Source: an uncultured Armatimonadetes bacterium (GTDB lineage Bacteria > Armatimonadota > Hebobacteria > Hebobacterales > Hebobacteraceae). From it: 64,000 nt of DNA. This document shows, in pieces, positions 477-32,796 of this stretch. Each line of letters begins with the position of its first letter. Within the stretch, counting starts at the first letter, position 1. A model generated the notes under the pieces. It was not told where the DNA came from, did not search any database, and worked only from the letters and a program-made list of their open reading frames with translations. The translations under genes were made by a program, and so were the position numbers. Location of the stretch: positions 2,272,001 to 2,336,000 of the forward strand of contig OY970296.1 of NCBI GenBank assembly GCA_963716175.1. Direction: 5' to 3'.

Positions 477-730
477 CCGACGGCCCCGGCCACCCTCGAC
501 TCCGGCTACCCCCTCGGCTGGGGGTCGATGTCCGGGGTCCGTCGCTTACCGGAGACGCCAGCTGCGCCACGGTGGCGATCACGGGCAGCCCTGCCCAGTC
601 GGATTCCCTGGCGCTGCCCTTCCGCATCCTCGGCGCCTCCCAGCACAGGGATTCCAGCGAATGCCGAGAACACGACGATCGGGGCTGCAGGAGCATTCTG
701 GGAGCCGGATGAGTTTCTGGACAGCGCGGC
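477..730 (+). repeat. Dispersed intergenic element, copy 1 (hairpin 477-545 plus opposite-strand promoter/SD/short ORF)
   Basis: CGACGG..CCCCGG..GACTCCGGCTACCCCCTCGGCTGGGGGTC..CCGGGGTCCGTCG; downstream ~180 bp aligns with copies 2, 3 and 7. Confidence 0.85.
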
Positions 731-797
731 AGCCGACGTAGCATGGGAACCGCGCCGAGGACTCAGTCGCTTGGTCTGCGAGAAGAGGAGGTGACCA

Positions 798-3767
798 GTG
801 ATGCGGGTGCTGGGTGTGCCATGCAGTGCGTCGCGGTTTTCTGGGGCCGCGCTCTGCCTGTTGCTGGCTCTGGCGGCACGTGGCGGGCTCGCGGCGAAGG
901 CGGCCGGGAGCAGTCGAGGCGGGGGCAGCGCGGCGCGGGCGGTGGTCACGTATGTCGCGGGCGAGGTAGTTGCCGCCACCGGAAAGGCTGCCCGCCACAA
1001 GGTGGTGTTGGGCGAACAGCTCTCGATGGGGACGCGTCTGACACTGGCGAAGTCCTCGCGGCTGACAGCGCTGTGGAAGGATCGTCAGGTGACGACTGCT
1101 CTCAGGGGACCGAAGAGGGGGGTCGTGCTGACACCCCCGCCCCGCCCGAAGCGGACCGCGGACTCCGGCCCGTCCTCCCCGTCAGTGGTGAGGAGCGTTT
1201 GGAGCGCGGTGTGGACCCGCTTCGGCCGGGTGGGGCGGGGGCGGAACGGCCGGGCCGGGACGATGGAGGAACCCCTGGCTGTCCGCGGTTCTGGCGATAC
1301 CTGGCAGATGCGCCCGGCAGATGAGTACATACGATCGGGCAGCGTTGACCTGAGCTGGCATGACTCATCTGGGAGCACCGGTCAGCACCTGGTAATCATC
1401 TGGGATGCGAGCTTCGGGGAGCTCTGGAAGGCGACAGTCCGGGAGCACTCGGTCGCCGTGCCCACCTCGATCGGCTTTGCGCCTGGGCAGCGGTACCGGT
1501 GGGTAGTGTCCTCGGCGGCGAGCTCGGAAGCCTCCCCCATGCGGTGGTTCGAGATCCTGACGCCTCAGCGGGAGGCCTCTCTCCAGGACGAACTGCGTTG
1601 CGTCCAGGACCTGTTCCGGAAGGCAGACCCGCCATCTCAGATGCATGCCGCCATGGGGTGCATCTACGAGAGCTATGGGCTCGACTCGCAGGCGCGGGCC
1701 GAGTATCAGACGGCGGCGAAGACCAGCAAGGGATACCAGGCACTGGCTGACGCATTGGATCAGCAGAGGGCCCACAGCTCTGCCGTTGGTTCCCGTCCGC
1801 AGGTCCCCCGCGGGGCGAGTGATCCGAAGGCCACCAGTGACCACGTGAACTCGTCCCCCGGCCGACGACGAGTGCTGTTGACCAATCTCGGGCACGGCCT
1901 GATCGCCGGCTTGCTCATCGCTCTGCTGCATCTTTCAGGGCTGACCCTGACGCTGGACAAGCGCAACTACGATCTCTTGTTCCAGTTCTCACCAACCTCT
2001 GACAGGCCGGCCCAGCACGTCGTGATCGTGGGGGTTGATGACGCATCTCTGGGTGACCTGGGCCGCTGGCCCTGGCCCAGCAGTCGGCTGGCAATGGTGC
2101 TGCGCAAAGTGGAGCAAGCGCGGCCTGCGGCCGTTGGCCTCGACGTGTTGCTGGATCGGACTCGAGATGCGACGGACCCGGAACTGGGACGGGCGCTCCT
2201 GGAGCTGACCAACGTGGTCGCTGCCGCCAATCTCCGCTGGACGTCTGGCCTGCTGGCCGACATTGACCGGCCGGTGCCGGCCTTTCGCATCGGCACCGAG
2301 CGGATGGGGTTCTCGAACGCGGTCGAGGACCGAACCGACGGGTACATTCGCTCCTGGCGGCTGGCAGTGCAGGGCGACGGCTCGAAGCCCCTGCTGTCGC
2401 TGCCGGTCATGCTGGCTCTAGCGGCCTCGGGCAGGCCTGCCGACGACGTCCGCGTCGGCGGCGGTTCAGTGTGGCTTCCGCAGGTAGTGACGGCGTGGCG
2501 GAAGTGGCCTATGGTCACCATGATCGACTTCCGCCGTCCGGGTCAGATCCCCATACTCTCTGCGGCAGACGTACTCGAAGGCCGTGTGCCACCGGAGGCA
2601 CTGTCGGGCAAAGTGGTACTGGTGGGCGGCACGGCCACAGGGGTCTTCACCGACCTCTTTCGTACGCCGTTCTCGGACGACCTGGCAACCGGACGCTCGG
2701 CGCCGGCTCATGGTGTCGAGGTGATCGCGAACGCGGTTGAGACCCTCCTTTCTGATGTGCGCGTGCGAGAGCTGTCGCCGCTGGCGGCAGCTTCCATTCT
2801 GGCCGCCTTGGTCGTGATCGCGTGTGCCACGCTCCGACCTTTGCATCCCCTGTGGGGCGTGGGCGTTGTAGGGGTTATGGTGGTCGGTGTGGCGGTGGCA
2901 TCACTGGCGCTGTTCTCCTCCCATCGCCTCCAGGTCCCGGTCACTCCATTTGCGCTGGGGGTCACCGCAGCCTACCTGGTGGTGGCCCTGGAGAAGCGTG
3001 CGGCAGCAGATGCGCGCAGGCGCCTCGCCGAGCATAGGAACGTCCTCCTGCGCGACCTCTCAGCCATGGTGACACACGACCTGAAAGGGCCGTTGACAGC
3101 CATCATCGGGTTCCTCGAATTGCTGTCACGAGAGCAGCTCAGCGACAGCCAGCGGGAATTCGTGCAGATCGCCATGGGCAGCAGCAAGTGGCTCTCTGTG
3201 CTGATCGCAGGCATCCTCGACGTGGCGAAGATCGAGGCTGGGCAGATCAGTCTGAACCGCGAGTTCCTCGACATCGGGCGTGAACTGGAGCAGGCGCTGG
3301 CGGCCGTGAGCTATCAGCTCCAGGAGAAGGATCTGCGGATGGAGGTGACCGTCGAAGCTGACCTCCCCTGTGTGCCGGCCGACGCGGAGCTCTTCCGGCG
3401 AATCGTGGTGAACCTGGTGGGTAATGCTGCCAAGTTCGGCCCCGCGGGAAGCACGATCCAGCTTGGGGCCAGCCTTGATCGCAAGCGTGAGGCGCTCGTC
3501 GTAAGCGTGCAGGACCAGGGGCCAGGGATCGCGCGGGAGTATCAGGACCGGATCTTCGACAAGTTCGTGCAGGTGGCCAAAGCCAAGAGTGCAGAGACGA
3601 TCTCCGTCGGCCTCGGGCTGGCCTTCTGCCGTCTGGCTGTGGAGGCACATGGAGGTGGCATCTGGGTGGAGAGTGAACCTGGGCACGGCGCCCGGTTCTC
3701 GTTCTCATTGCCGCTGACTCTCCCTGACTCGCACAGGGCCCCGAAGCGCCGCTGGCGTCGGCTGTGA
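798..3767 (+). CDS. CHASE2-domain sensor histidine kinase with an N-terminal signal peptide and FecR/DUF928-like region
   Basis: CHASE2 motifs (VVIVGVDDASL, GRWPWP, VGLDVLL, GKVVLVG, HGVEVIANAVETLL), TM helices, HisKA (HDLKGPL), HATPase (NLVGNAAKF, DQGPGI, GLGLAFC); SD GAGGAGG upstream. Confidence 0.9.
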   Translation: MMRVLGVPCSASRFSGAALCLLLALAARGGLAAKAAGSSRGGGSAARAVVTYVAGEVVAATGKAARHKVVLGEQLSMGTRLTLAKSSRLTALWKDRQVTTALRGPKRGVVLTPPPRPKRTADSGPSSPSVVRSVWSAVWTRFGRVGRGRNGRAGTMEEPLAVRGSGDTWQMRPADEYIRSGSVDLSWHDSSGSTGQHLVIIWDASFGELWKATVREHSVAVPTSIGFAPGQRYRWVVSSAASSEASPMRWFEILTPQREASLQDELRCVQDLFRKADPPSQMHAAMGCIYESYGLDSQARAEYQTAAKTSKGYQALADALDQQRAHSSAVGSRPQVPRGASDPKATSDHVNSSPGRRRVLLTNLGHGLIAGLLIALLHLSGLTLTLDKRNYDLLFQFSPTSDRPAQHVVIVGVDDASLGDLGRWPWPSSRLAMVLRKVEQARPAAVGLDVLLDRTRDATDPELGRALLELTNVVAAANLRWTSGLLADIDRPVPAFRIGTERMGFSNAVEDRTDGYIRSWRLAVQGDGSKPLLSLPVMLALAASGRPADDVRVGGGSVWLPQVVTAWRKWPMVTMIDFRRPGQIPILSAADVLEGRVPPEALSGKVVLVGGTATGVFTDLFRTPFSDDLATGRSAPAHGVEVIANAVETLLSDVRVRELSPLAAASILAALVVIACATLRPLHPLWGVGVVGVMVVGVAVASLALFSSHRLQVPVTPFALGVTAAYLVVALEKRAAADARRRLAEHRNVLLRDLSAMVTHDLKGPLTAIIGFLELLSREQLSDSQREFVQIAMGSSKWLSVLIAGILDVAKIEAGQISLNREFLDIGRELEQALAAVSYQLQEKDLRMEVTVEADLPCVPADAELFRRIVVNLVGNAAKFGPAGSTIQLGASLDRKREALVVSVQDQGPGIAREYQDRIFDKFVQVAKAKSAETISVGLGLAFCRLAVEAHGGGIWVESEPGHGARFSFSLPLTLPDSHRAPKRRWRRL

Positions 3768-3900
3768 GAAGGTCACAGGAAAGAAGAGCATAGAGAAAGG
3801 CGTACTCGTAGCGGACCAAGGGCCCCTGTGCATCCGTGAGCACGCGCACAACGAGGTCGAAGCGCCTTCTTGGCGAAGCCGTGCTGCTGAGGGAACGAAC

Positions 3901-6900
3901 ATGGCGGGCGAGAGCAGGCCTTGGGGTCAGGCTTTTCGCAGGTCCTTCGCCCTGGCGTGCTGCGCGGCCGGTTTCTCCCTGCTGTTTCTTGGCGCACTCC
4001 CGATCTGTGCTGACACCGACAAGGCAAGCGCAGACGCGGCGTTGGCCAAGGGGTGGGCTCTTTACGAGCAGCAAGACTTCCTAGGCGCCCGTGGTCCGTT
4101 CGAGCAAGCCTTAGCGGCCTACCGCAAGCTGGGGCTGCAGAAGGAGGAGGGCCAGGCGCTCACCGGTTTAGGCGTGGTGGCGCGCACAGTGGCCCAGTAT
4201 GACAAGGCCCTGGGCTACTTCGACCAGGCGCTGACGACTTACCGCAAGCTGGGGCTGGAGCAGGAGGAGGCGTACACACTTCTCAACCTGGGCTACGTGG
4301 CCCGCCACCTCGCCCAGTATGACAAGGCCCTGGGCTACTATGAGAAGGCGCTGGCGACTTTTCGCAAGCTGGGCCTGGAAAAGGAAGCTGCCAGCACGCT
4401 GAAGATGTTGGGCTGGGTGGCCGCCGATCTCGCCCAGTACGATAAGGCTCTGGGCTACTTCGACCAAGCGCTGACGACTTACCGCAAGCTGGGGCTGGAG
4501 AAGGAAGCTGCCGGCACGCTGAACAACATGGGCTGGGTGGCCGCCGATCTCGCCCAGTACGACAAGGCTCTGGGCTACTTCGACCAAGCGCTGACGACTT
4601 ACCGCAAGCTGGGGCTGGAGAAGGAAGCTGCCGGCACGCTGAACAACTTGGGCTGGGCGGCGCGCGAACTGGCCCAGTATGACAAGGCCCTGGGCTACTG
4701 CGACCAAGCGCTGACGGTCTGCCGCAAGCCGGGGCTGGAGAAGGAAGCTGCCGGCACGCTGAACAACCTGGGCAGAGTGGCCCTCGAGCTAGCCCAATAC
4801 GACAAGGCCCTGGGCTACTTCGACCAAGCGCTGACGACTTACCGCAAGCTGGGGCTGGAGAAGGAGGAAGCGGAGACACTTCACTGCCTGAGCGCGGAGG
4901 CGCGCGAACTGGCCCAGTATGACAAGGCCCTGGGCTACTGCGACCAAGCGCTGACGATCTGGCGCAAGCTAGGGCTGGAGAAGCACGAGGCGTACACATT
5001 TGACGAGCTGGGCCTGGTCGCCGCCGACCTCGCCCAGTACGAGAAGGCCCTGGGCTACTACGAGCAGTCGCTGGCGATCTGGCGCAAGCTGCGGCTGGAG
5101 AAGGAGGCTGCCACCACGCTGAGCACCCTGGGCCTCGTAGCCGCCAATCTCGCCCAGTACAATAAGGCCCTGGGCTATTACGAGCAAGCGCTGGCGATCT
5201 ACCGCAAGCAGGGGGTCCCCCGCTATACCCGGTGGGCTCAGGCCAACATCGCCGACGTGCACCTGAGCCAGGGCAGGCTTGGGGAGGCGCGGGGCCTCCT
5301 GGAGCAAGCAGGGGACCCGCTGCGCTGGGGCCGCTACTACCTGCGCGCGGGGGACCCGGGAAAGGCAGCCAACGCATTCGAGCAAGGGGTTGATGTCGCG
5401 GAGCAGGCCCCCCCTGTCCGCGTCGCCTACCAGATCGGTCTTGGTCTGGCCCAGGAAGCGCTGGGGGAGTGGGAGAAGGCGGCGACGGCTTACGCCAAAG
5501 CCGTGGATCTGATCGAGAAGGCGCGAGCGAACACTCCGGCCGGGCAGCGAGGGAGCTTCTTCGAGGGGAAGGACTACGGGTTCCGTCGCCTGGAGCCCTA
5601 TGAAGGTCTTGCTCGCGTACTGCATCGGCTGGGACGAGACGACGAAGCCTTCTACTGGAGCGAGCACACCAAGGCGAGGGCCTTGGTGGAGGCGGTGGCG
5701 AGGGCGCCTTTTGGCGCGCCCCTGGGTTTGCCGGAGGGACTGCGCAGACAGGAAGACCAGCTCACCGACCAGGCCGCAGTGTTGAGCAAGCGGCTGGAGG
5801 AGAAGCCCGGGCAGCGGCAGGCGATTGAGGAGCAACTGAAGCCGGTGCGAGCGGAGCTGGAGGCTTTGCTTGCTCGCCTCCGCCTGGAGTACCCAGAGTA
5901 TGCTTCCCTGCGGTATCCTCAGCCGCTGCATGCGGGCGAGCTGGCCTTGGGGCCTGAGGAGGTGCTGCTGGCCTACCAGGTGACGGAGCCGGAGAGCTTC
6001 GCCTTTCTGGTGCGCCAGGGCAAGGTCGAGAAGGCCTTCGAGATCAAGCTGAGCCGTCAAGAACTTGAGAGCCTGATCCTGAGCTACCGGGCAGGCTTCG
6101 CGTCGGTGCGGCAGCAGGCCGATCTTCGGGCCCTTGATCTGCAGGCTGGTGCGCGGCTCTACCAGTTGTTGCTCGCGCCCGTGCTGGCGGAGGTGAAGCA
6201 GGGCGAGCAGGTGGTGGTGGTGCCGGATGGGGTGATTGGGCTGCTACCGCTGGAGGTGCTGATAGAGCACGCAGACAGGGTGCAGTGGCAGGAGGGGGAG
6301 CACGGGCCCTCCCCGGTGGGAGTGCACTTCGTCGGAGAGAGCAGGGTCTTCAGCTACTGGCAATCGGCGACGGCGATGACCACGGTACGGAGGCTGAGGA
6401 AGGAGGTGGGAGGAGATCGGGCGCTGGTGGTGGCGGACCCAGTGTTCGAGGCGAGCGACGCGCGGATGCCGGCCACGCAGGTGGCGAAAGTGGAACCAGC
6501 CGGCGCGGACTTGGGCCTGCGGGGGGAGATTGCGGAGAGCCTGCGGACGGCCTACGGAGCGGAGATCTTCCAGCGCATCGGGGGAGCCGAGCAACTCGTG
6601 GCAGGGCTGCGTCGCCTGTATGGCGAGAGGCTGACCGCGCTGGTGGGGCTAGATGCGCGCAAGGGGAGGCTCAAGCAGGAGCCCTTGGAGCGCTACGGCC
6701 AGATGATCTTCGCCACCCATGGCCTGCTGGGCGGGAACGTGCCCTGGCTGCGGCAGCCGGCCCTGGTGCTGAGCCAGGTGGGCAATGAGCCAGGGGAGGA
6801 CGGCTATCTCACCATGGCGGAGGTAATGGACCTGAAGCTGCGGGCCGAGGTGGTGGCCCTGATGGCCTGCGACACCGGCGCGGGGAGGAACGTGGGGGGC

Positions 6901-7185
6901 GAAGGCGTGATGGCGATGGGGCGGGCCTTCCAGTATGCCGGAGCGCGCAGCGTACTGGCGAGTCTCTGGAAGGCGGAGGATACAAGCACGAACTTGCTGA
7001 CGGAGGCGTTCCTCAAGGAGATGATGGCCGGGAAGGACAAGAGTGCCGCCCTGCAGGCGGCGCGCCAGCGCGTCCGCGAGGCCGGCTACGTTCATCCCTT
7101 CTACTGGGCGAACTTCGTCCTGATCGGGGAGCAGAGCGTGGCGAGCAGTCCGAGCGCACCGAAGGCGAGCGGAGCGGGAGGTTAG
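3901..7185 (+). CDS. Secreted TPR-repeat CHAT (caspase-like) domain protein
   Basis: Signal-peptide-like N-terminus; about nine 40-aa TPR-like repeats; CHAT motifs VPDGVIGLLPLEVL, FATHG (His), LMACDTG (Cys), ASLWKAED, HPFYWANF. Confidence 0.93.
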   Translation: MAGESRPWGQAFRRSFALACCAAGFSLLFLGALPICADTDKASADAALAKGWALYEQQDFLGARGPFEQALAAYRKLGLQKEEGQALTGLGVVARTVAQYDKALGYFDQALTTYRKLGLEQEEAYTLLNLGYVARHLAQYDKALGYYEKALATFRKLGLEKEAASTLKMLGWVAADLAQYDKALGYFDQALTTYRKLGLEKEAAGTLNNMGWVAADLAQYDKALGYFDQALTTYRKLGLEKEAAGTLNNLGWAARELAQYDKALGYCDQALTVCRKPGLEKEAAGTLNNLGRVALELAQYDKALGYFDQALTTYRKLGLEKEEAETLHCLSAEARELAQYDKALGYCDQALTIWRKLGLEKHEAYTFDELGLVAADLAQYEKALGYYEQSLAIWRKLRLEKEAATTLSTLGLVAANLAQYNKALGYYEQALAIYRKQGVPRYTRWAQANIADVHLSQGRLGEARGLLEQAGDPLRWGRYYLRAGDPGKAANAFEQGVDVAEQAPPVRVAYQIGLGLAQEALGEWEKAATAYAKAVDLIEKARANTPAGQRGSFFEGKDYGFRRLEPYEGLARVLHRLGRDDEAFYWSEHTKARALVEAVARAPFGAPLGLPEGLRRQEDQLTDQAAVLSKRLEEKPGQRQAIEEQLKPVRAELEALLARLRLEYPEYASLRYPQPLHAGELALGPEEVLLAYQVTEPESFAFLVRQGKVEKAFEIKLSRQELESLILSYRAGFASVRQQADLRALDLQAGARLYQLLLAPVLAEVKQGEQVVVVPDGVIGLLPLEVLIEHADRVQWQEGEHGPSPVGVHFVGESRVFSYWQSATAMTTVRRLRKEVGGDRALVVADPVFEASDARMPATQVAKVEPAGADLGLRGEIAESLRTAYGAEIFQRIGGAEQLVAGLRRLYGERLTALVGLDARKGRLKQEPLERYGQMIFATHGLLGGNVPWLRQPALVLSQVGNEPGEDGYLTMAEVMDLKLRAEVVALMACDTGAGRNVGGEGVMAMGRAFQYAGARSVLASLWKAEDTSTNLLTEAFLKEMMAGKDKSAALQAARQRVREAGYVHPFYWANFVLIGEQSVASSPSAPKASGAGG
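4120..5210 (+). repeat. Coding tandem repeat, 120-bp unit, about nine copies
   Basis: GCCCAGTAYGACAAGGCYCTGGGCTACT..CGCAAGCTGGGGCTGGAG recurs at exactly 120-bp period. Confidence 0.95.
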
Positions 7186-7231
7186 CTCAGCGGCGTGCGC
7201 CGGGCGAAGCACGCAGTTGAGGCCCTGTACT

Positions 7232-7603
7232 CCGATTTGAACCTGCGACCTCGCGATCGGGCCGGTTCGGTCGGATGGGGCGGACGGAGAAGAACGACGT
7301 AGGGGCGTCAAAGGGGGCAAGAGAGGGCAGATAGGTCTTGAGGGCAGGAACTGTCTTCGCATGGTCGCAGGTTCAAATCGAGGTCGCAATCAGTGGATTG
7401 CTTGCTCACCTTGACCCCGATATGAACCTGCGACCTAACGGCGTTCCTCTGGGATCTCCACCCTCGCCAGCCGCAACCCCGCCTCCTCCCACATGGCGTC
7501 TAGAGCCCTGCCAAGCCTCTCAAAGGGCAATTCCCAGATCCATCGCCTAGTGCGCATCTTCTCTAAGGCTGCCAATCCTGCCCCCGATTCGAACCTGCGA
7601 CCT
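7232..7603. repeat. Four ~20-bp repeats CCGATWYGAACCTGCGACCT (7232, 7363 inverted, 7417, 7584)
   Basis: Direct inspection; the reverse complement GGTCGCAGGTTCRAATC resembles a tRNA variable loop/T-arm. Confidence 0.85.
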
Positions 7604-7678
7604 GACCTGCGAGACACTCTCAGCAACGTCCACTTGCGCGCAAGAGGCGACGGCGTCTCTGGCGTCGCCTCCATATCC

Positions 7679-7754
7679 TGGTGCCGGGTCCCAGAGTCGA
7701 ACTGGGGACGCCGGGATTTTCAGTCCCGCGCTCTACCACCTGAGCTATCGCTCC
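7679..7754 (-). pseudogene. Chimeric tRNA-Phe(GAA) with unpaired acceptor stem (att-like copy)
   Basis: GGAGCGA-TAGCTCAGGTGGTAGAGCG-CGGGACTGAAAATCCCG-GCGTCCCCAGTTCGACTCTGGGACCCGGCACCA; 5' GGAGCGA cannot pair with 3' ACCCGGC. Confidence 0.8.
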
Positions 7755-7841
7755 ACTCGCGCTCAGGCCGCAGTCATCCCCCAGGAACACAGGTGTCCCG
7801 CTATCGAGCAGGGCCATCGGCCACCTCGGCGAAGCTCCTGG

Positions 7842-8097
7842 GCGACGGCCTCGGGCACCCCCGACTCCGGCTACCCCTCGGCTCGGGGTCACTGGCTGGG
7901 GGTCCGTCGCGTACGGCGGCGGGAGCCGCGCCACGGCGGCAATGACCGGCAGGCCCGCCCAGTCCAACCCTCGTTCGACGACCTTCTCCATCCTCGGTAC
8001 CTCTCAGCGCAAGGATATGCACAAGCGGAGAGAATACCACGAGAGAGGCGGCACGAGCATCCTGGAAGGCAGATGACTTTCTGGACAGCACGCGGCA
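7842..8097 (+). repeat. Dispersed intergenic element, copy 2 (hairpin 7842-7910)
   Basis: GCGACGG/CCGTCGC closing stem, GACTCCGGCTACCCCTCGGCTCGGGGTC core; minus-strand ATG at 7991 with AGAGGT SD. Confidence 0.85.
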
Positions 8098-8230
8098 GCA
8101 GCACAAGAAGATGATACTGGGCCATGGAAACACAGGGGCAGAGACACCTCAAGTGTGTCTCTGCTCACCCCCGATCTGTCCCAACTTCGCTGAGGCCGGA
8201 CATCAGGCGTCTTAGGGAGGAGACGAGCTC

Positions 8231-8851
8231 ATGGCAAGACACGCGGCGCTTGACTTCGACCGCAGACTCCTGCGCCTGTTCAAGGATCGAACTCACAGGC
8301 TAAGGGCACAGGTCCGAAAGCCCACGCGAGGCAAGGCCCCATCCTTCAACAAGACGAAGGTGGAACGTGTCATCAAGCAACTCCAAGAACTGGCGACTAA
8401 GTGCCAGCTACATGATCACGCGATCCGAGGCCTGAGGCAACTCTACGACCTCAAGAAGCAGTGGCATGTAACCAGTAAGACGGGTTGGGGCAATGAAAGA
8501 AAGCGAAAGGCATTCGTCGCGTGGTTTGAGAAGCACATTCCCTATGACAACTGCGTGTACGTGTTTTGGGAAAAGCGCAGATGCCGTTATGTCGGCCGAA
8601 CGCTAGGCGGACAGAATCGGCCTCAAAGCCAGTTTCAGAAGTTCTGGTTTCCTGGGGTCACCAGAGTTGACATCTATGCAAGTGGAGGGGCACGCGAGAT
8701 TCCGAAATTGGAGTGCCTGGCAACGCATCGTTTCCGGCCGACTCACTCGCGGATGAAACCCGCAACGCGAAAGTGGTACTCGAAGTGTCCGATCTGCGAG
8801 ACACGCAAGCTCGTCCGTGCCGAAGTGAAAGCAATCTTCAGGTTCCGATGA
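8231..8851 (+). CDS. GIY-YIG-superfamily nuclease-like basic protein with C-terminal CxxC
   Basis: CVYVFW-x6-YVGRT, downstream Arg and Glu (PKLECL); SD GGAGGAG. Confidence 0.7.
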   Translation: MARHAALDFDRRLLRLFKDRTHRLRAQVRKPTRGKAPSFNKTKVERVIKQLQELATKCQLHDHAIRGLRQLYDLKKQWHVTSKTGWGNERKRKAFVAWFEKHIPYDNCVYVFWEKRRCRYVGRTLGGQNRPQSQFQKFWFPGVTRVDIYASGGAREIPKLECLATHRFRPTHSRMKPATRKWYSKCPICETRKLVRAEVKAIFRFR

Positions 8852-9243
8852 AGTCGCCCGTAGAGGTCGCCCTGGATTGTCACCGCGCTGCATTCGCCCG
8901 TCGACGCATACGTGACCCGGCGTTGATTTCGGCCTCGTTCCAGGTGAGACCATTGCCCCGCGGCAGGTGAGCCGATCAACCGGTGGTATCGGTCGCGGGC
9001 GCGGGATCGGCCCGAGCAGCGGGACGTTTTGGGAACGCGTGCGGGTGCCAAATGGGCTTGGGACACCACCTGCGCCACCCAGACAGGCTCTGATCCTATG
9101 GGCGGGGGCGCGACCGCAGATGCGAACGGGACAGTGGGCACGGACGGGTTGCCGAGGCATCCGGCGAGGCCAAGGAGGGTTGCAGCAAGCGCGGCGGGAC
9201 GCGCCGGGCTGCGAAGTGACACCGGCCGCGGCTGGCAGAGGAA

Positions 9244-9518
9244 TCAGGCGGCGAGCCGGTAGGCGGTGATCCGGGTGTCGGCGAAGACGCGTCGCTCAAG
9301 GTTGGTCGGCAGAGCCTTGGTTGACTTCTCCGGCTTGGTCCACTGCTCGCCGCGATGAACCACCGATGGAAGCGCGCCGCCCAGCGTGGCATGGCCGCGG
9401 TACTCGTTGTAGTAGACGGCGAAGTCGTGCAGCAGTTGGCTCAGATGATCAAGGCCGCGGGTGATGGGGACGCGCTTCAGCCATTCGTACTTCAGCGTGA
9501 GGATGACGCGCTCGGTGA
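9244..9518 (-). pseudogene. C-terminal fragment of a DDE integrase-core (rve-type) transposase
   Basis: Reads TERVILTLKYEWLKRV...FAVYYNEYRGHATLGG...RLAA*, matching the ER..TLK.E / YN..R.H.L.G signature. Confidence 0.75.
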
Positions 9519-9671
9519 GAACAGCATCAGCATCACCTGCCAGAACATGGCCGGGAGGATGCCCCAGTGATGGCGAGAAGTCAACCTCAGTCGTGCCCGG
9601 GAACCAAGACTCCTGGCTTCCTGGATGCCTCAGATTGGTCTTGGTACACTACGACCTGCCGGTTTGTCTGA

Positions 9672-11048
9672 CTAGCGTTCCGCTCGCGTAATGAGCTTCC
9701 AGAAGAAGAACGCGGGCTCGTCGCGTATGGCGGCCTGGTGGTCGCGCAGGTCGTAGATCCCCTGTAGGGCTGCGACGAGAGCTGCCGCCAGGGTCAAGCC
9801 CCCGGTCGGATATGCGGCAACAAGCGATGTCGCGATCACACCGGCGTTCAGAAAGACACGGCTCTTGAGTTGCTTGTTCGCACGCGAGACTCTGTCAACC
9901 GCGTCTCCCAAGATGTCCCGCTGCACTGTCTTGATACGCTGCTCGAGTGTTGCCGTTCCCCCATCTGACGCGATCTCTGCGAACGCCCTGTCGAGAGCTT
10001 CTCGGAACCGCTCGAACGCATCTTCGTCTCGACGCACCTTAGCCAGATCCGCTATTGAGACCTTGTCCAAAACCGGGAGGTCTATTCGTAACAGTGCTGA
10101 GGAAACCGGTTCCATCGGCATCTCTGCTGACAGACCGATCTCCAACATGTCTCGCGACACGGGCGAGCCCGTAAGGAGACGAGCTCCGCTCGCGCAAGCC
10201 GCACGAACATCTTGGACGACCCCTTCGAATCTGTCTCGGAGCACCGCAGCGGCGGACTGGTTCACCCACGTCTCGAACTCTTCCTCGGTCACTGGCTGCG
10301 GATCACGGAGATTCAGGGAAGTGTGGAGTATCCGGTGCTCTTCATCCTCGTCGCGGATGGGCAAGATCTCGTGAAGGAAGAACAGCCGTCGCGGCTCGGT
10401 CGGATCGCCGCGAAAGCCGCAAGCGATCATGCGACCGGGGGTCAGAGGTCCATCCGTCACGACAAAGTCACTGTCCACGTAGCGCACTGGTTGAACGAGC
10501 AGACTCTCAACGCCGTACGCTATTAGGGATGGCGGCGGGGCAGATGGTGACTGCTCAAACAACGGCACTGACCCGGGTTTCGGAACGAACCAGCTGAGGG
10601 TCCTGGCCCGTTGTCGTCCCAGCGGGACCACGATCCCACTTTCGACCAGAGGCCTTATCTCAAGGAGTCGGCCCAGCGCACCCCGTATGGCCTGTTGCTC
10701 CCGCTCTAGTCTCGCCTCCTGTCCTTTCGTCACGGCGAACAGGTCAGCTCCTGGCCTCAGCCAGCGCACGGCAAGGCCGTAGAGCGGATCATCAAGGAAT
10801 ATCCGGTGGGCGTACAGGCAGAGTCGCCGTACGGCGCTCAACGGCAACCCCGGATCAGCAGAATCGGGATAGACCCGGAACACGCGTCGGTCGGTCTCTT
10901 CTCCGACAGCCTCCCTGTGTTCACATATCCGAGCGTACTCCTCATAGAACCGGGACAGTTCCTTGTCTGTCACCCGGCTAATCTGCGACTCGTCTATCTG
11001 CCCTCGTCGAGCAAGCCCGTAGCGCTCAATGATGTCGTAGACGCTCAT
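9672..11048 (-). CDS. Hypothetical protein, DUF6236-like architecture, C-terminal hydrophobic hairpin
   Basis: 458-aa ORF; LCLYAHRIFLDDPL, LPVLDKVSIADLAKVRRD..FERFREAL, then hydrophobic tail. Confidence 0.75.
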   Translation of the reverse strand: MSVYDIIERYGLARRGQIDESQISRVTDKELSRFYEEYARICEHREAVGEETDRRVFRVYPDSADPGLPLSAVRRLCLYAHRIFLDDPLYGLAVRWLRPGADLFAVTKGQEARLEREQQAIRGALGRLLEIRPLVESGIVVPLGRQRARTLSWFVPKPGSVPLFEQSPSAPPPSLIAYGVESLLVQPVRYVDSDFVVTDGPLTPGRMIACGFRGDPTEPRRLFFLHEILPIRDEDEEHRILHTSLNLRDPQPVTEEEFETWVNQSAAAVLRDRFEGVVQDVRAACASGARLLTGSPVSRDMLEIGLSAEMPMEPVSSALLRIDLPVLDKVSIADLAKVRRDEDAFERFREALDRAFAEIASDGGTATLEQRIKTVQRDILGDAVDRVSRANKQLKSRVFLNAGVIATSLVAAYPTGGLTLAAALVAALQGIYDLRDHQAAIRDEPAFFFWKLITRAER

Positions 11049-11171
11049 TCTAGTCCCGTAGTGTACCGGAACTGATCTGAGGGTTTCTTCGGCAGGTGCA
11101 GAGCGGGACCTGCCCTCTCGCGTGGTTGGTTGATGGGGTTTGAGATGGCTCGCGCGTCCCCGAAGCTAAGC

Positions 11172-11420
11172 TGACGGCCCCGGGCACCCCCCCAACTCCG
11201 GCTACCCCCTCGGCTGAGAGTCACGGCCTGGGGTTCCGTCACGTAGGGGACAGCAGTCAGGCTACCGTGGCAATCACCGGCAGTCCTCAGAGTCCAGTCC
11301 TCTATTGCTGTCCAGCTGCATCCTTTATGCCTCCGAGACGAAGGGGTGTCGGCGAGCGCACGGAATACCATGAGACCGGCTATGCAGAGGCTTCGAGAGC
11401 CGGGTGAGTTCTCGGATCGG
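11172..11420 (+). repeat. Dispersed intergenic element, copy 3 (hairpin 11172-11241)
   Basis: TGACGG/CCGTCA compensatory closing stem; AACTCCGGCTACCCCCTCGGCTGAGAGTC; minus-strand GGAGG plus ATG at 11321, ORF frameshifted. Confidence 0.85.
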
Positions 11421-11425
11421 AGGGC

Positions 11426-12445
11426 ATGACGGTGGAACGGGACGAGGGAGCCCCCGAGATCGCGTTCTACTATCCCGGCCACCTCTGGCGGTCCGGTGAC
11501 TGGATAAAGAACCTGCTCCTGTTCTTCGATGGCGTCGGGCTACTGGTTCCTTCCCACAAGAGGCTTGAGCCCGAGATACTCGATCCAGTCGTTGTGAAGC
11601 CCCTGCTGGATGAACAGCTGCTTCATATTCTCGAGCCTGAGGCATTAGTGGACCAGGAGGCAACTCAGCACCTTGTGGGCACGATGACGGACCTCATCGC
11701 GGCCGGGACCCTAGACCCTTTGGCCGCGGAGGGCGGCGCGTTTGACACTATCTCAAGGTCTCGCTTCGGGTACCATGGCGATCCTGGCCTGGCGGACATG
11801 ATGTTCGAGGAACTGAAAGCTCGTGCCCTCGCGCGCGACAGCGAAGATGGCGTCTCGATACCGATCCATCCGTCGATCCGCTACCTGATCCTTGCCTTGC
11901 TCGCACAGATTCTCCGACCGAAGGGACGCCAACTCGGCCTAGACTTGTCCCCGGTCACCGACCGCCCAGAACTCATCCAGGCGCTTTCCGAGTTCCTGAC
12001 GATAGCGGTCCCACCATCGGCCGGACAGGTGATAGCTCTTGACCTCCAGACGGTTGGCGTGGACCTCAGTGCTGTGCCAATCGACGAAGTCCTCAGCTTC
12101 CGCAGTTCAAACCTCGATTCCCACAGGGCTTACATCCGCGCCGTGCGCCGGTTCGTCCGTGAGCTGAGTGTGATGCCGGAAGAGAGTCGCCGCTTAGCGA
12201 TGTTGGATCGCGGGCGGGAACTCGATGATATGGCAAGCGATCTCACGCGCAATGCCCGGAAGGCCTGGCGTCGCGCAGCGGCGTTCGCGCTGAGCATCGC
12301 GGGGGCTACGTGGAAGATGGCCAGCGGTGACCCATTGGGGGCCCTTCTGGGGGCAGGGGCCGCCCTCGCTGGTGGCGTGGGGGGCACAGGTGCAGAGACT
12401 GGCGCGTATAGCTACCTGTTCGCCGCCCACGAGCGGTACGCCTGA
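11426..12445 (+). CDS. Hypothetical protein, DUF6236-like
   Basis: AFYYPG..WIKNLLLFFDGVGLLVP N-terminus; VPIDEVLSFR; Gly/Ala-rich hydrophobic C-terminus. Confidence 0.8.
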   Translation: MTVERDEGAPEIAFYYPGHLWRSGDWIKNLLLFFDGVGLLVPSHKRLEPEILDPVVVKPLLDEQLLHILEPEALVDQEATQHLVGTMTDLIAAGTLDPLAAEGGAFDTISRSRFGYHGDPGLADMMFEELKARALARDSEDGVSIPIHPSIRYLILALLAQILRPKGRQLGLDLSPVTDRPELIQALSEFLTIAVPPSAGQVIALDLQTVGVDLSAVPIDEVLSFRSSNLDSHRAYIRAVRRFVRELSVMPEESRRLAMLDRGRELDDMASDLTRNARKAWRRAAAFALSIAGATWKMASGDPLGALLGAGAALAGGVGGTGAETGAYSYLFAAHERYA

Positions 12446-13182: not shown

Positions 13183-13258
13183 TGGTGCCGGGTCCCAGAG
13201 TCGAACTGGGGACACCCGGATTTTCAGTCCAGCGCTCTACCACCTGAGCTAACCCGGC
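13183..13258 (-). tRNA. tRNA-Phe (GAA)
   Basis: GCCGGGT/ACCCGGC acceptor stem, CTGAAAA anticodon loop, GTTCGAC T-loop, encoded CCA. Confidence 0.95.
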
Positions 13259-20665: not shown

Positions 20666-20995
20666 GTCGGCTCTCCTCGCCAGTCTCCTCAAGAAGGCTG
20701 TGGGTTTCCCAGCTTCGGGACCCGCCAGTCACTGGACTCCGGTAGGTAGCGTGATGTCATGCCGGCGTCACGGACGGTCGGCAACGACACGCGGCTCTCG
20801 ATCACAGTGCCCATTCACACGCGGGCCGCTCAAGCGAGTCTCCGAAGCGCATCGTCCATCCCGCGGGCCACACACAAGTTCCCAGACAGCACGGGGCAAT
20901 ACTGGCTTTCCCATCTTCTGTTCCTGTCACGACGCTGGCGACAGTCCCCGGACGGCGGCATCCCACTGCCTGCTCCACCGGGATCTCTCGCGTCC

Positions 20996-22006: not shown

Positions 22007-22198
22007 GAGATAGCGATCACAGTGTCGGTTCCGTATGCGCGGCCGGCAGTTCGCAGCTCGGCGGCCACGGGACCAAGGCCTGGGGCGCGAGCGGCTGAAA
22101 GCTCAGCACACTGCGTGGCCGCACACTACGGTAGTGTTTTCGATGGCGGTCCGCCAGCACCTGCGGTTCCAGCGCCTGCCACAGCCAAGGCCTCGGGC

Positions 22199-22267
22199 CG
22201 ACGGCCCCCTGCAACCCTCGACTCCGGCTTCCCCTTCGGCATGCAGGCACTATGCGGGGTTCCGTCG
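22199..22267 (+). repeat. Dispersed intergenic element, copy 4 (hairpin)
   Basis: CGACGG-CCCCCTGCA-ACCCTCGACTCCGGCTTCCCCTTCGGC..TGCGGGG-TT-CCGTCG. Confidence 0.8.
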
Positions 22268-22397
22268 CGCATGGGGCAGTGCCAGGGGGCAAGGCTAATC
22301 GGGGCAGGTCAGGCCGGGAATCGTCCATCGCCGGCAGGACCATCGCCACCCGCTCACGTATAGGGCGGGATGGCAACCTTCAGGAGGCAAGACGACC

Positions 22398-23189
22398 GTG
22401 GCGACTACAGGAGACTTCACTTTCTCGGTGTTCACGAAGCCGTGGAAGACGCCGATCCGCGAGCTCGGCGCGTTTGTGAAAGGGCTGGGATTCGACGCCA
22501 TCGAGCTGCCCGTGCGGCCTGGCTACCAGGTGCTGCCGGAGAACGTCGAGCGCGACCTGCCTAAGGCCGCCAGGCAGTTAGCTGACTGCGGCGTGGCTAT
22601 CGCCAGCATCGCCGGGCCCACCGACGAGAAGACCATCGCCGCCTGCGCCGAGGCCGGCGTGCCGATCATCCGCGTCATGGTCCGCATCGGCGAAGAGGGC
22701 TACATGGCGACGGACGCGAGAACCCAGGCCGAGTACGAGGCCCTCGTCCCCCTGCTCGACAGGTACAAGGTTCAGATCGGGGTGCAGAATCACTGCGACG
22801 AGTTCGTCGCCAACGCGATTGGCTTGCTTCATCTCATGGAGCGCTTCGACCCCAAGCACGTTGGCGCGGTCTGGGATCCGGCCCACTGCGCGCTCAATGG
22901 TGAGGACCCGGAGCTGGCCGTTGATATCCTCTGGTCCCACCTCTGCATGGTGAACCTGAAGAATGCCTTCTGGCAGCGGAGGACCGGCCCCGAGGCCGAG
23001 GTCGCCAAATGGCAGGTCTACTGGACCACCGGAAGACAGGGGCTTGCCTCCTGGGCGCGTGTCGGCGCCGAGCTGAAGCGGCGGAAGTGGCGTGGCGTCC
23101 TCTGCCTCACCGCCGAGTACAGTGACGAGCCGTCGGTCAACCGCCTGATCGCCGACGATATCGCCTTCGCCAAATCGCTGTTCACCTGA
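22398..23189 (+). CDS. Sugar phosphate isomerase/epimerase (xylose-isomerase-like TIM barrel)
   Basis: GFDAIEL, GVQNH, WDPAH, NLKN, AEY motifs; SD AGGAGG. Confidence 0.85.
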   Translation: MATTGDFTFSVFTKPWKTPIRELGAFVKGLGFDAIELPVRPGYQVLPENVERDLPKAARQLADCGVAIASIAGPTDEKTIAACAEAGVPIIRVMVRIGEEGYMATDARTQAEYEALVPLLDRYKVQIGVQNHCDEFVANAIGLLHLMERFDPKHVGAVWDPAHCALNGEDPELAVDILWSHLCMVNLKNAFWQRRTGPEAEVAKWQVYWTTGRQGLASWARVGAELKRRKWRGVLCLTAEYSDEPSVNRLIADDIAFAKSLFT

Positions 23190-23262
23190 GGATGCCGCGC
23201 TAGCCGAGAACTCATCTGCGCGCCCGAAACGGGACTGACGCCTGCAACGAAGAGGCCCTGTG

Positions 23263-23336
23263 CGCGACGGCCCGAGCAACCCTCCGACTCCGGCTGCCCT
23301 CCTCGGCTTGGCATCAGTGTTCGGGGTTCCGTCGCG
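23263..23336 (+). repeat. Dispersed intergenic element, copy 5 (hairpin)
   Basis: CGCGACGG-CCCGAGCA-ACCCTCCGACTCCGGCTGCCCTCCTCGGCT..TGTTCGGGG-TT-CCGTCGCG. Confidence 0.8.
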
Positions 23337-23685
23337 GGTGCCGGAGATCCTGAAGCTGACCGGCAGCGGCGCTGACTGTATGCTGGGGCCCATGTGTCGT
23401 GTCCGCCCTGCCTGCAGCAGGACCACCTGCGTGATCAGGCAGATCGAGGTTCCGGCCGCTTCCGCGTGGATTCACTCCGGGCGAAATGGAGTGCCCACCC
23501 TACGACAGAGGATGTCCCCGGAGCAAGGCAGGAGCGGTTCCACGGCGAAGTGGCCGGCGCACGTGGAAGCGATCGACCATCTTGCTGGGGGCACGTGACC
23601 CGGGCTGGCAATCCCAGTCCTGGTGGAGTCGCCAGCGCCCGGGTGTGGCGTCGGAGCCGGCAATCTTCGACGATGGAGAGGCGAC

Positions 23686-24666: not shown

Positions 24667-24804
24667 GCGTTCGGCGCGGCACAGGAGCTGACCGACAGAC
24701 GCGGCCGCCGGCCCCGCGGTGCGCCCTTCGCTGTGGGCACATGTCCTGGCGGGTCAACCTCGGCTCCGTAGCAGGCGAGACAACCGCAGGGGTGACGGAC
24801 TCAG

Positions 24805-25854: not shown

Positions 25855-25971
25855 GCTTCTTCCCTTCGCCGGGCCCCAGTTCTCTCCTGGACATGTGGGG
25901 GGCGGGTCGCCGGGCAGGTTGCAGGCCTGCGGAGTGGCAACTCGACCAGACGTTCCGCCGCGCGGTCTCAT

Positions 25972-26040
25972 TGATCGCCCTCGGCCCTCCTCGACTCCGG
26001 CTACCCCCTGGGCGTGGAGTCGGGGCCTGGGGTTCGGTCG
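25972..26040 (+). repeat. Dispersed intergenic element, copy 6 (hairpin)
   Basis: TGATCG/CGGTCG covaried closing stem; CTCGACTCCGGCTACCCCCTGGGCGTGGAGTC core. Confidence 0.8.
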
Positions 26041-26248
26041 CGGATAGTGGTCAGAACCGCGGGTCATTCTGCACTGGCCCGGGTCAGAGCAAGGCTACGG
26101 CGGTTCCAGAGCGAAGTAACCGCTACAGGAGATCGCGCTGACCGCTGTGAAGAGACGAGATCCCGCGCCGGTTGGCATCGCACGATACCAGCGGGGAGGG
26201 CGCGTCGCCGATAGGCCGGCATGATGGCTGAACTAGGAGAGACCACCG

Positions 26249-28438: not shown

Positions 28439-28461
28439 AGCAGCAGCGAGAGGGTTATGAA

Positions 28462-31170: not shown

Positions 31171-31255
31171 CGAGGTGCGAGGAGGGCGCAAGCTTCCGCG
31201 CAGTGCCCACCAGCGACCGCCAACGCGCCGTCCGCCGAGTGCGGAGATCAGGAGG

Positions 31256-32568
31256 CTACCGGTCCGGCCTTTTCTCCCCGCGCGAAGTGCCGGCGCCGGC
31301 CTGGCCCGATTCCACCAGCTCACCCGTCGCGTCCCGGATTTTCGCAACCGCCTCGGCGAAGAGGTCCATGTCCTGCTGGCTGCCGAGGAGCACGGTCTGG
31401 GGGAGGGAGAGGAACTTGCCGGCATAGCCTTCGGCCACCGGGCAGCGCGTCCGCGTGTAGTCGAGTTCCTTCCCGTAGACCCTCAAGATGCCTGGGTCGA
31501 AACGTTTCTCCACGAACATCGGATGCTGGTGAAGCGCCCGCACTGCCGTGACCGCGCTGCAAGGAATGCCCTCCGCGGACAGGGCCTCGGCGAAGCGCGC
31601 CGCCGGCAGCCCTCCCAAGGCTTCCGCGTCGTAGTGCAGCGTCGGGTAGAGGTGGCTGAGCCGCGTCATGCGCGGGTCCCTAGTGGGGAAGCGCACTGCG
31701 GCGGTGACCCCGGCGAGCGCGGAGGCGAGATGGGCGGCATTCGCCTCTTTGACGCTGATCAGGTCGTCAAGCCTGCCAAATTGCGCTAGCACGATCGCTC
31801 CCGCGAACTCGGACATACGGAAGTTCCAGCCCATCTCCTCGAACCTGCCTATCTCATCCTGTCCGACCCGCTGCCCGAGCTTGCGACATTCGCGGCGAGC
31901 ACCTCGTCATTCGTCACGATCATCCCGCCTTCACCCGCGGTGAGCGACTTGTCCTGCTGAAAGCTGAACGCGCTCAGGTGTGCCGCGGCCGCCACCTTCC
32001 TGCCGCGCCATTCGCTACCATGGGCGTGGCAGGCGTCGCCGATCACCATCAGGTGGTGGCGCTGGGCGATCGCCATGATCGCGTCCATGTCGCAGGGGAT
32101 GCCCCCGCAGTGCACCGGCACGATCGCCTTTGTCCGTTCCGTGATCGCGGCCTCGATCGCAGCTGGGTCCAGGTTCAACCACTCGGCCTCGATATCCACG
32201 AACACCGGGATCGCGCCCAGAGCAAGCGCCGCGCTGGCAGTGGTGACGAAAGATCGAGGCGGCATGATCACCTCATCGCCGTGGCCGACGCCCGCCGCCG
32301 CATAGCTGATCAGCAGCGCCGCCGAGCCGCTATCCACCGCGATGCCGTACGCGCAGTCGTGGTAGGCCGCGTACGCCTGCTCCAACTGCGCCACCTTGGA
32401 CTCGCTGAAGTCCCTTCCCTTGCCCTCGAAGATGTAGGGCAAGGCGCACCAGCACCTGCTCTCGAGGACCTCCCGCACCCCCTGGAGTTCCCGCTCATCG
32501 TAGATCGGCCATACCGGCCAGCTTCCCGTCCTGACCGGCTCTCCACCTCGGATTGCGAGCTTCGCCAT
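31256..32568 (-). CDS. DegT/DnrJ/EryC1/StrS aminotransferase, frameshifted near 31889
   Basis: DSGSAAL, PVFVDI, DACHAHG, FSFQQDKSLTAGEGG, then GWNFRMSE in another frame; adding one A restores continuity. Confidence 0.85.
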
Positions 32569-32592
32569 CACCGCCCTCCCTATCGCCATTGT

Positions 32593-32796
32593 CGGGTTCC
32601 ATCCCAGGCTAGCATCCCCTTTCGTGCTCCTCTCGGAGGCAACGATATGGCCGGGCTGCGCAGTGGTTCAGCCGCACCCGTGCCCTGCTGCATCATCCAT
32701 GCCTCCCAGAACAGGGGTATGCGTGAGGGGAGAGAATAGCACGAGATGGGCGGCAGGGGCGGTCTGGGTGCCAGATGAGTCTCTCGACGGCACGCG
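32593..32796 (+). repeat. Dispersed intergenic element, copy 7 (hairpin mostly lost)
   Basis: GCCTCCCAGAACAGGG..GAGAATAGCACGAG..CCAGATGAGTCTCTCGACGGCACGCG aligns with copies 1-3; only GGGTTCCATC of the hairpin remains. Confidence 0.7.

Follow-up and report, generated by a model that had tools for sequence, protein, structure and literature searches.

The window analyzed here, a stretch of 64,000 nt from the chromosome of an uncultured Armatimonadetes bacterium (contig OY970296.1, positions 2,272,001 to 2,336,000), contains six copies of a hairpin repeat of ~70 nt, here called H, that recurs elsewhere on the chromosome in long, same-strand arrays. Our favored interpretation, which is drawn by analogy and to which we assign a probability of about 40%, is that H is a DNA-level junction or recombination element of hypervariable, co-oriented cassette arrays, comparable to the attC sites of integrons and to clusters of attC sites lacking an integron integrase (CALIN). 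The H system is not an integron: it lacks both IntI and the GTT/AAC boxes, and its breakpoints do not define a single crossover point. The large-scale pattern is hard to derive from a repetitive extragenic palindrome (REP)-like element or from an RNA motif alone, but is of the kind that cassette systems generate: H is confined to arrays and keeps a direct orientation whatever the genes do, intervals tend to hold one gene, units recur and are shuffled, remnants of recombinase genes are present, and an insertion sequence (IS) is specific for the site.

Integrons, which rely on a single specialized integrase, are to our knowledge the one well-understood case of gene cassettes that are delimited and moved by way of folded single-stranded hairpins. 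If recombination at H were shown, it would represent a second independent solution to cassette capture, with a new structure-specific site and a candidate Xer-type enzyme, and the origin of cassette arrays would become testable. If H proved instead to be a REP-like or terminator module, it would still be a lineage-wide organizer of the accessory genome, occupying 7% of the chromosome and abundant in freshwater sediment metagenomes.

A hairpin family in co-oriented arrays

The source chromosome (G000) is a single contig of 4.56 Mb with ~65% G+C; its genes were called with a crude codon-usage caller, and the gene calls are rough. An earlier note, made from the letters of the window, had placed six hairpins there, all on the + strand. 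A covariance model (CM) was built from the six window copies and then used to score both the window and the genome. All six hairpins were recovered where they had been noted and on the + strand, with CM scores of 75 to 84 bits and nhmmer E values of 1e-13 to 1e-15 (Table 1). They form the tail of a cluster at 2259 to 2298 kb. The housekeeping half of the window had been described as free of hairpins, and neither nhmmer nor the CM found a copy between positions 26043 and 64000. A “truncated seventh” element at 32593 to 32796 did not hold up, as there is no hairpin there; the place is occupied by a solo copy of the class I repeat described below. The proposed architecture, with a closing stem, a 3'-side bulge of T or TT, a middle stem, a C-rich internal loop, a GACTCC inner arm, and a conserved apex, was reproduced both by RNAalifold on the six copies (23 predicted pairs, 4 of them with changes on both sides) and by the aligned copies. 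The RNA fold of copy 1 has the consensus architecture, with a z score of -2.66.

The fold is maintained across the family. In a structure alignment of 98 copies fitted to the CM (84 from G000 and 14 from G011, a relative in a sister genus), 87.2% of pair cells held standard pairs, compared with 32 to 53% for structures slid by 1 to 3 columns. The covariation score was 0.151, compared with 0.125 in shuffles, and was reached by none of 500 shuffles. Pairs with double changes numbered 13 of 23; since this count was equaled in 53 of 500 shuffles, covariation is modest and conservation is dominant. The closing stem has the 6-bp consensus CGACGG/CCGTCG, the middle stem is variable in sequence, and conservation peaks in the apex and left inner arm (at least 90%). 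The two arms of H are near-inverted copies of each other, and the inner stem pairs CUCC with GGAG.

On the whole chromosome, nhmmer found 97 copies of H, and 99 after iteration (70 on the + strand and 29 on the − strand), while the CM found 82 at an E value of ≤1e-3; 94 of the 99 lie outside called genes. Under a 20-kb same-strand rule, the copies fall into 14 clusters (of 35, 13, 12, 7, 6, 5, 4, 4, 4, 3, 3, 1, 1, and 1 copies) that together span 329 kb, or ~7% of the genome. Neighboring copies within 20 kb of each other are on the same strand in 85 of 88 pairs, at a median spacing of 1910 nt (quartiles, 1300 to 4106), and 63 of the 88 intervals are ≤4 kb long. A single gene occupies 43 of these intervals, two genes occupy 14, and 8 contain none. 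The orientation of H is far more uniform than that of the genes inside the intervals, 133 of which are co-oriented with H and 70 opposite. Relative to H, the upstream and downstream genes are oriented same/same at 43 copies, opposite/same at 25, same/opposite at 20, and opposite/opposite at 11, so that the upstream gene is co-oriented with H in 63 of the 99 cases and opposite in 36. H had been described as standing always ahead of accessory genes, 130 to 350 bp upstream of a + strand gene. This is correct within the window, where the distances measured with the crude gene calls are 254, 322, 186, 131, 289, and 209 nt, but it does not extend to the genome, where 68 of the 99 copies have a co-oriented gene downstream. 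The largest array (1904 to 2028 kb; 77 proteins) encodes polysaccharide-degrading enzymes, methyltransferases, acetyltransferases, two-component proteins, and S-layer-homology proteins, and it also holds pieces of several IS families and two integrase fragments; 29 of its 77 proteins have no Pfam match.

H is embedded in a mosaic junction. The 100 to 190 nt downstream of H are themselves repeated, with a partner for 79 of the 99 copies, and far fewer upstream flanks have one. The first kind of flank, the class I module (~190 nt), has 57 nhmmer matches in the genome, 30 directly after H and 27 solo; in the tables, read by eye, a co-oriented gene follows ~24 of the 30 H-linked copies. Class I holds a small stem and conserved AGAACA and GAGAAT motifs separated by 18 nt, and from this arrangement, judged by eye, it would be a promoter plus leader; a simple promoter/terminator scan made no call at the class I modules or hairpins of the window. 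Because promoter-like class I sequence of ~190 nt lies between H and the gene at 477, 7842, and 11172, H is probably upstream of the transcription start there. The 3' end of class I was at one point taken for an integrase-derived piece, a reading since rejected: the fragment at 2027 kb is now read as class I joined onto a truncated integrase gene. The class II module (~105 nt; 31 nhmmer matches, 15 of them after H) is mostly followed by an opposite-strand gene (10 of 16; tables read by eye). A third kind of flank, class III, follows copy 6 in the window and is of the same type at two other copies in the genome.

Upstream of H, just 3' of genes, lies a short element, the T motif, which is the reverse complement of the outer end of class II and which in “type B” H is fused directly to the left arm. 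It is an imperfect palindrome that joins at least four different downstream modules (e.g., L052:17544-17593). Searched as a 23-mer with ≤3 mismatches, it occurs 26 and 21 times in the two sister-genus genomes and 7 to 10 times in each of four genomes without H, with 0 occurrences of a reversed control pattern; as an exact 23-mer it is conserved in several genera without H (relatives G002, G010, G013, and G014). Judged by this distribution of sequences, the T motif is older and wider than H. A typical junction is accordingly laid out as gene, T, H, class I, and next gene, or, where the next gene is inverted, as H, class II, and inverted gene.

Table 1 Positions of H copies, flanking modules, and the IS481-type element
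Feature	Window position	Genome position	Strand	Evidence and context
H copy 1	476-546		+	CM 79.2 bits; nhmmer E 8.6e-14; type A left arm; followed by class I module
H copy 2	7841-7911		+	CM 79.3 bits
H copy 3	11170-11243		+	CM 83.7 bits
H copy 4	22197-22269		+	CM 82.2 bits; 131 nt before xylose-isomerase-like TIM barrel gene (22398-23189; Pfam)
H copy 5	23263-23336		+	CM 75.1 bits; brackets a single-gene interval together with copy 4
H copy 6	25970-26042		+	CM 84.4 bits; last copy of the 2259-2298 kb array; followed by class III flank
Class I	552-737	2272552-2272737	+	nhmmer E 3.9e-49; between H copy 1 and CHASE2 histidine kinase gene (798-3767; Pfam)
Class I	7912-8113	2279912-2280113	+	nhmmer E 2.9e-47; after H copy 2
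Class I	11244-11440	2283244-2283440	+	nhmmer E 1.1e-34; after H copy 3, up to start of gene 11426-12445
Class I, solo	32680-32801	2304680-2304801	+	nhmmer E 8e-27, profile positions 68-189; no H match nearby
Class II, solo fragment	20718-20796	2292718-2292796	+	nhmmer E 2.1e-07
IS481-type element		1725478-1726844		L014:17478-18844; 5-bp duplication (CTACC or CTCCC)
IS481-type element		1904451-1905814		5-bp duplication (CTACC or CTCCC)
IS481-type element		1934759-1936123		5-bp duplication (CTACC or CTCCC)
IS481-type element		1973937-1975305		5-bp duplication (CTACC or CTCCC)

Recurrence of units and distribution of H

Comparison of the chromosome with itself revealed that H-bounded segments recur at other array positions. 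A unit of 0.8 to 0.9 kb is present three times (1949152-1950074, 2026232-2027030, and 2258927-2259858), and a 1.2-kb unit recurs in inverted form (2057658-2058838 and 2259787-2260966), an inversion that matches the opposite strands of H at the two places. Further units are held in common by 1060652-1061171 and 2025765-2026281 and by 1064402-1065307 and 2056807-2057713, and others link the cluster at 1033 to 1065 kb with the regions at 1976, 2026, and 2057 kb. Between genomes, the open reading frames (ORFs) of the G011 arrays have best G000 matches that are scattered, several of them inside G000 arrays, with no common order, and in one instance an orthologous gene adjoins H in both genomes in opposite relative orientations (L043 9613-10641 and G000 2089688-2090551). 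Metagenome contigs with H have only isolated segments in common with G000. Two pairs of such contigs differ at H itself: L084 and L107 are 99.8% identical over 1247 nt and diverge exactly at the boundary between T and the left arm of H, and L109 and L120 differ through H and rejoin at the right closing arm.

H is also the target of a mobile element. An IS481-family element of 1.36 kb lies in the apex loop of four H copies, in one orientation relative to H and with a 5-bp duplication in each case (Table 1), and is a site-specific IS that homes to the H apex. Its transposase (379 aa) has rve, HTH, and IS481 leucine-zipper domains. A unit with a 193-aa ORF, present in three copies, starts with a similar IS end and accounts for three “half hairpins.” Other IS families target attC or REP sites.

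In a set of 31 genomes (G000 and 30 relatives, many of them incomplete metagenome-assembled genomes, few in number and not independent), the CM matched H 82 times in G000, 56 times in G005, and 19 times in G011; two more genomes had single weak matches, and 26 had none. G005 and G011 represent one sister genus. A 21-base core of H was found in at least 119 sediment-metagenome stretches. The anatomy was read in 80 of these, which contained 140 H matches; of the 37 contigs that carried at least two copies, 35 were fully co-oriented. The core was found in no viral contig, and neither the core nor H plus class I had a blastn match in plasmid/phage collections. In the literature, supplementary files aside, we found no paper that combines Armatimonadetes with attC sites and integrons, and none that combines Armatimonadota with intergenic hairpin repeats.

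Four DNA metagenome runs, of six that share ≤0.20 of sampled words, were compared with the window. Loose ends at the hairpins in these runs are places at which contigs break, and H breaks short-read assemblies at exactly these points; one such end, at 26015, is the IS481-type insertion described above. Apparent joints from 7877 to 9615, 12794, and 25989 were set aside, as their sides run for only 23 to 32 nt through the common apex; we read these as products of assembly through the repeat, not of recombination.

The orientation of H may be related to replication. dnaA is located at 1.343 Mb, and cumulative GC skew reaches its lowest point near 1.15 Mb. With the origin taken to lie in this region, to its left 21 of 22 copies are on the − strand, and right of it, 69 of 77 are on the + strand, so that, provisionally, 90 of the 99 + forms would lie on the presumed lagging-strand template. 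Copies that depart from this pattern are grouped in blocks (1713 to 1725 kb and 2056 to 2059 kb), as local inversions would give.

We hypothesize that DNA is exchanged at H and the adjoining T motif, either by structure- or site-specific recombination or by homology-driven exchange between repeats. The asymmetric features of H (the TT bulge, the C-rich internal loop, and the invariant apex) could give the site a direction, and the arrays would then stay co-oriented. The G-T-richer form of H would be on the lagging-strand template, where single strands could fold during replication, and Xer-type tyrosine recombinase paralogues would be the candidate enzyme. A more specific proposal, which we regard as doubtful, is that the arrays constitute an undescribed, integron-like gene-capture system of Armatimonadota, with promoter-bearing cassettes stored in chromosomal arrays of >100 kb, recombination at the conserved ~70-nt folded hairpin and an adjoining dif-like core, and XerC/D-type paralogues replacing IntI. 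If this were true, structure-specific cassette capture would have arisen independently outside the integron lineage.

Weighing the cassette-junction interpretation

The likeness to attC sites and CALIN is considerable in general layout. H copies are imperfect hairpins of ~70 nt whose T/TT bulge and C-rich loop, seen across the 98 aligned copies, correspond to the extrahelical bases and the internal unpaired region (unpaired central spacer) described for attC (PMC5027507). They stand in same-strand arrays, most of whose intervals fall within the 4-kb rule by which IntegronFinder clusters attC sites (PMC4889954). Most intervals hold single genes and some hold no ORF, units are duplicated and shuffled, recombinase pseudogenes lie within the arrays, and an IS targets the site. 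In contrast with integrons, there is a Xer-type candidate in place of IntI and no attI or Pc platform beside an integrase. The H cassettes are also larger (median, 1.9 kb), about one-third are inverted, many have a promoter-like module, and the breakpoints are not at a single position. A folded-DNA, integron-like delimiter of cassettes was one of the possibilities raised in the earlier note. The co-oriented arrays, single-gene intervals, duplicated units, shuffling, and integrase fragments speak for it, whereas IntI, the GTT/AAC boxes, a variable apex, and a single breakpoint are lacking.

Two other systems in which repeats bound exchangeable genes offer parallels. In the pdif modules of Acinetobacter plasmids, accessory genes are bounded by Xer-family sites and shuffled between replicons (PMC6449649, PMC7399989). 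By eye, the T motif that adjoins H is readable as 11-6-11 inverted arms, like a dif-type core. Four or five of the breakpoints lie within ~13 nt of the center of T; yet T is also found where this integrase is absent, and the sites in the arrays face the same way. pdif sites are 28-bp duplexes that alternate in orientation, are plasmid borne, and are served by the host XerC/D, whereas H copies are ~70-nt hairpins, co-oriented and chromosomal, in arrays of >100 kb. The intergenic dRS3/RS mosaic elements that flank minimal mobile elements in Neisseria resemble the H arrays in that mosaic repeats bound exchangeable gene units and exchange takes place through the repeats; they differ in sequence and size and do not form long co-oriented arrays.

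A number of results weigh against the cassette-junction interpretation, and they concern the site as well as the enzyme. Breakpoints were found at T or the left arm (comparisons P3 and P6 and case 7), at the apex (P7 and the downstream breakpoint of P5), and at the right closing arm (the upstream breakpoint of P5, P2, and case 3). Since they occupy several positions, homologous exchange or gene conversion between repeats fits better than a single crossover point, and the lack of such a point is the main argument against a strictly attC-like mechanism. In integrons, the R'' RYYYAAC and R' GTTRRRY boxes pair at the base of the hairpin. The base stem of H reads CGACGG/CCGTCG, and only a GTT overlapping the bulge, unpaired, recalls these boxes. 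The terminal structure of attC is variable, whereas the H apex is invariant. The cassettes, being large, inverted in a third of cases, and in many instances furnished with their own repeated promoter-like module, are unlike integron cassettes, and the T motif extends to genera that have neither H nor the Xer-type integrase. With DNA parameters, the six + strands (mean, ~-17.0 kcal/mol; z scores of -0.26 to -2.43) fold no better than the − strands (mean, ~-17.8 kcal/mol), and the assignment of H to the lagging-strand template is provisional, given a noisy skew and an uncertain terminus position. These fine-scale data leave room for homology-driven exchange, for an origin in single-strand transposition, and for a role of + strand RNA.

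The Xer-type tyrosine recombinase is the only candidate enzyme found, and its link to H is loose. With 232 bits, the protein (303 to 325 aa) falls short of the cut-off of the XerC model. Intact copies are located at 808.8 kb (+) and 2242.4 kb (−), and 5'-truncated copies are located at 1952.9, 2027.2, 2102.5, and 2113.8 kb, the first three of them inside arrays. Only the ~1.1-kb gene and its promoter, which is clearly of the TTGAC type, are conserved between copies and genomes. Other Xer-like loci, at 4.483 and 3.112 Mb, both read as split and look like the housekeeping pair. All calls of “pseudogene” are provisional because the assembly seems to carry frameshifts: a DegT gene and these two Xer-like genes are split in the same way and represent either pseudogenes or assembly errors due to indels. 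At an E value of ≤1e-60 among the 31 genomes, the integrase was found in G000, G005, G011 (9 matches), G008, G012, and G018, that is, in all three H-rich genomes among others. Five intact or near-intact copies in G000 and G011 are separated by 7 to 15 kb from the 5' end of an array, with transcription directed outward, a placement that resembles the topology of integrons. Just upstream of the intact integrase, at 808.6 kb, is a C-terminal piece of a recombinase similar to those of the three-copy unit described in the last section.

For the enzyme, too, much counts on the other side. On TIGR02249, the IntI model (cut-off, 265), the best score genome-wide was 90 bits, and the array-associated integrase scored 63 bits or less. 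In a PDB search, the integrase was closest to XerD (1.4e-35), with XerA also near, and IntI4 (2A3V) was matched over a C-terminal stretch only (45 bits). Three genomes have the Xer-type integrase but no detectable H, H lies within 10 kb of only 2 of 10 close integrase loci in the relatives, and only 1 of the 80 metagenome H loci (L127) contains an integrase fragment. The integrase is never adjacent to an array; the 7- to 15-kb gaps hold ordinary genes and no multicopy repeat except a piece of another recombinase gene. A search for att-type direct repeats between the integrase end and the H end of two presumed islands yielded nothing of ≥11 nt. Both gaps in G000 hold restriction-modification genes, and one also holds helicase-nuclease and MerR/HTH_17 genes. 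Because of these defense-type neighbors, the integrase may belong to separate integrative defense islands in the same plastic regions.

Beside the intact integrases (L009:1764-5909 and L010:3905-17275) are D12 and Eco57I/TaqI-type methylases, a type III-like Res/Mod pair, DEAD and UvrD-PD-(D/E)XK helicase-nucleases, and a small MerR/HTH_17 protein. In metagenome contig L127 (1601-1995), a 5'-truncated integrase gene that begins at about residue 213 leads directly into the left arm of H, and the coding sequence there resembles that arm; the junction suggests recombination at a look-alike secondary site.

An alternative that we consider unlikely is that H is a palindrome of the REP, REPIN, or bacterial interspersed mosaic element (BIME) type, an inverted doublet of a ~30-nt unit that spread via single-stranded DNA by the action of a HUH (Y1, or REP-associated tyrosine transposase [RAYT]-type) enzyme or of another, unknown transposase. 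The transposition mechanism would then fix orientation with respect to replication, and the cassette duplications would be by-products of homologous recombination. H does share with such elements its high copy number, extragenic position, imperfect palindrome with near-inverted half-units, mosaic association with other repeat modules (as in BIMEs), lineage-specific sequence, and an IS that targets its loop, as IS target REPs. IS200/IS605-type elements have a replication-biased orientation, to which the common orientation of 90 of the 99 H copies relative to presumed replication would correspond, and the variable breakpoints fit homologous exchange. The genome also encodes five diverged RAYT-like Y1_Tnp (HUH) proteins of 162 to 179 aa (genes at 962.0, 1199.8, 3132.1, 3625.7, and 4050.7 kb). 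However, no H was found within 1.5 kb of any of the five genes, even at an E value of ≤10, and several have their own flanking inverted repeats of 34 to 48 nt; they probably serve other repeat families. Moreover, H copies are not dispersed but confined to tight arrays in 7% of the genome, neighbors are direct rather than alternating (85 of 88), the intervening genes are hypervariable between genomes, and inspection by eye revealed no target-site duplication.

Function as a + strand RNA strikes us as improbable as well. H would be a terminator, insulator, or 3'-end stabilizer in a mobile terminator-hairpin-promoter module, or else a leader or antisense RNA. Read on the + strand, the alignment contains 267 G-T or T-G cells versus 56 A-C or C-A cells (two consensus wobble positions account for ~125 of the G-T cells), and such tolerance of G-T is more typical of RNA than expected for the DNA-level element that we favor. 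The G-T excess is largest where both flanking genes are co-oriented with H (13.7% versus 2.2%) and smallest where both are opposite (7.5% versus 4.0%; n=8). With RNA parameters, the six + strands all take the consensus fold (z scores of -1.6 to -2.7), whereas the − strands are variable (-0.5 to -2.8), which gives the + strand a slight edge in these models. The G-T excess from which the earlier note took + as the likely folded strand is real; support from folding energies is weaker. In addition, the upstream gene is more often co-oriented with H than not, H often follows the hairpin-like T motif 3' of a gene and precedes a promoter-like module, and the inner stem pairs CUCC with GGAG.

On the other hand, the upstream gene is opposite at 36 of 99 copies and both neighbors are opposite at 11, and pairing is nonetheless 85.6 to 88.3% in all four classes of flanking-gene orientation; H follows the orientation of its array, not of its genes. 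There is no T-run after the H stem, and a terminator scan of positions 300 to 12000 called nothing at the window hairpins. The fold of the whole leader at 470 to 800 is not unusually stable (z score, -0.74). A search of Rfam 15 at gathering thresholds found only rRNA and tRNA, and at an E value of ≤5 over window positions 1 to 34000 there was nothing at the hairpins or class I modules, which agrees, as far as Rfam 15 goes, with the view that H is not a known family. The clustering and the shuffled cassettes would be left unexplained. The 5' leader or antisense RNA proposed in the earlier note is disfavored in particular, by the gene-independent orientation, by equal pairing in the four contexts, and by the class I module between H and the gene; H may still act as RNA at the 3' ends of the genes that precede it.

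Very unlikely, finally, is that H is the inside of a miniature inverted-repeat transposable element moved by a classical transposase (T, H, class II, and reversed T, ~180 to 220 nt in all): a left T and a reversed right T do lie ~160 to 200 nt apart at several copies, a minority of the family (e.g., 1927010/1927212, 1951768/1951924, and 2067568/2067728), and T is conserved as an exact 23-mer across genera, but most H copies (type A) lack the left T, and class II follows only 15 of 99. Inspection of 22 copies by eye showed no target-site duplication, T is joined to unrelated modules as well, and the uniform orientation within arrays is unlike that of typical elements of this kind.

Other features of the window and chromosome

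A partial tRNA (Rfam RF00005 model positions 8 to 63) lies on the − strand at window positions 7690 to 7747, ~95 nt upstream of H copy 2; its position at a junction of the array suggests that an integration or rearrangement left a scar there long ago. A complete tRNA is located at 13186 to 13258 (−). The DegT gene mentioned above encodes a DegT/DnrJ-type aminotransferase and is split into two ORFs on the − strand, at 31256 to 31834 and 31849 to 32589, which match Pfam profile positions 216 to 350 and 24 to 195, respectively. The hairpin-free housekeeping half of the window includes the start of an rRNA operon at 55718 to 58288 (−), with the 16S rRNA at 56755 to 58288 and tRNAs at 56499 to 56572 and 55718 to 55790. 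Elsewhere on the chromosome, a unit of adjacent tyrosine recombinase genes is present in three copies that are 92 to 93% identical (2841.6 to 2843.4, 2959.8 to 2961.5, and 3032.2 to 3034.0 kb) and is reminiscent of recombinase-trio elements.

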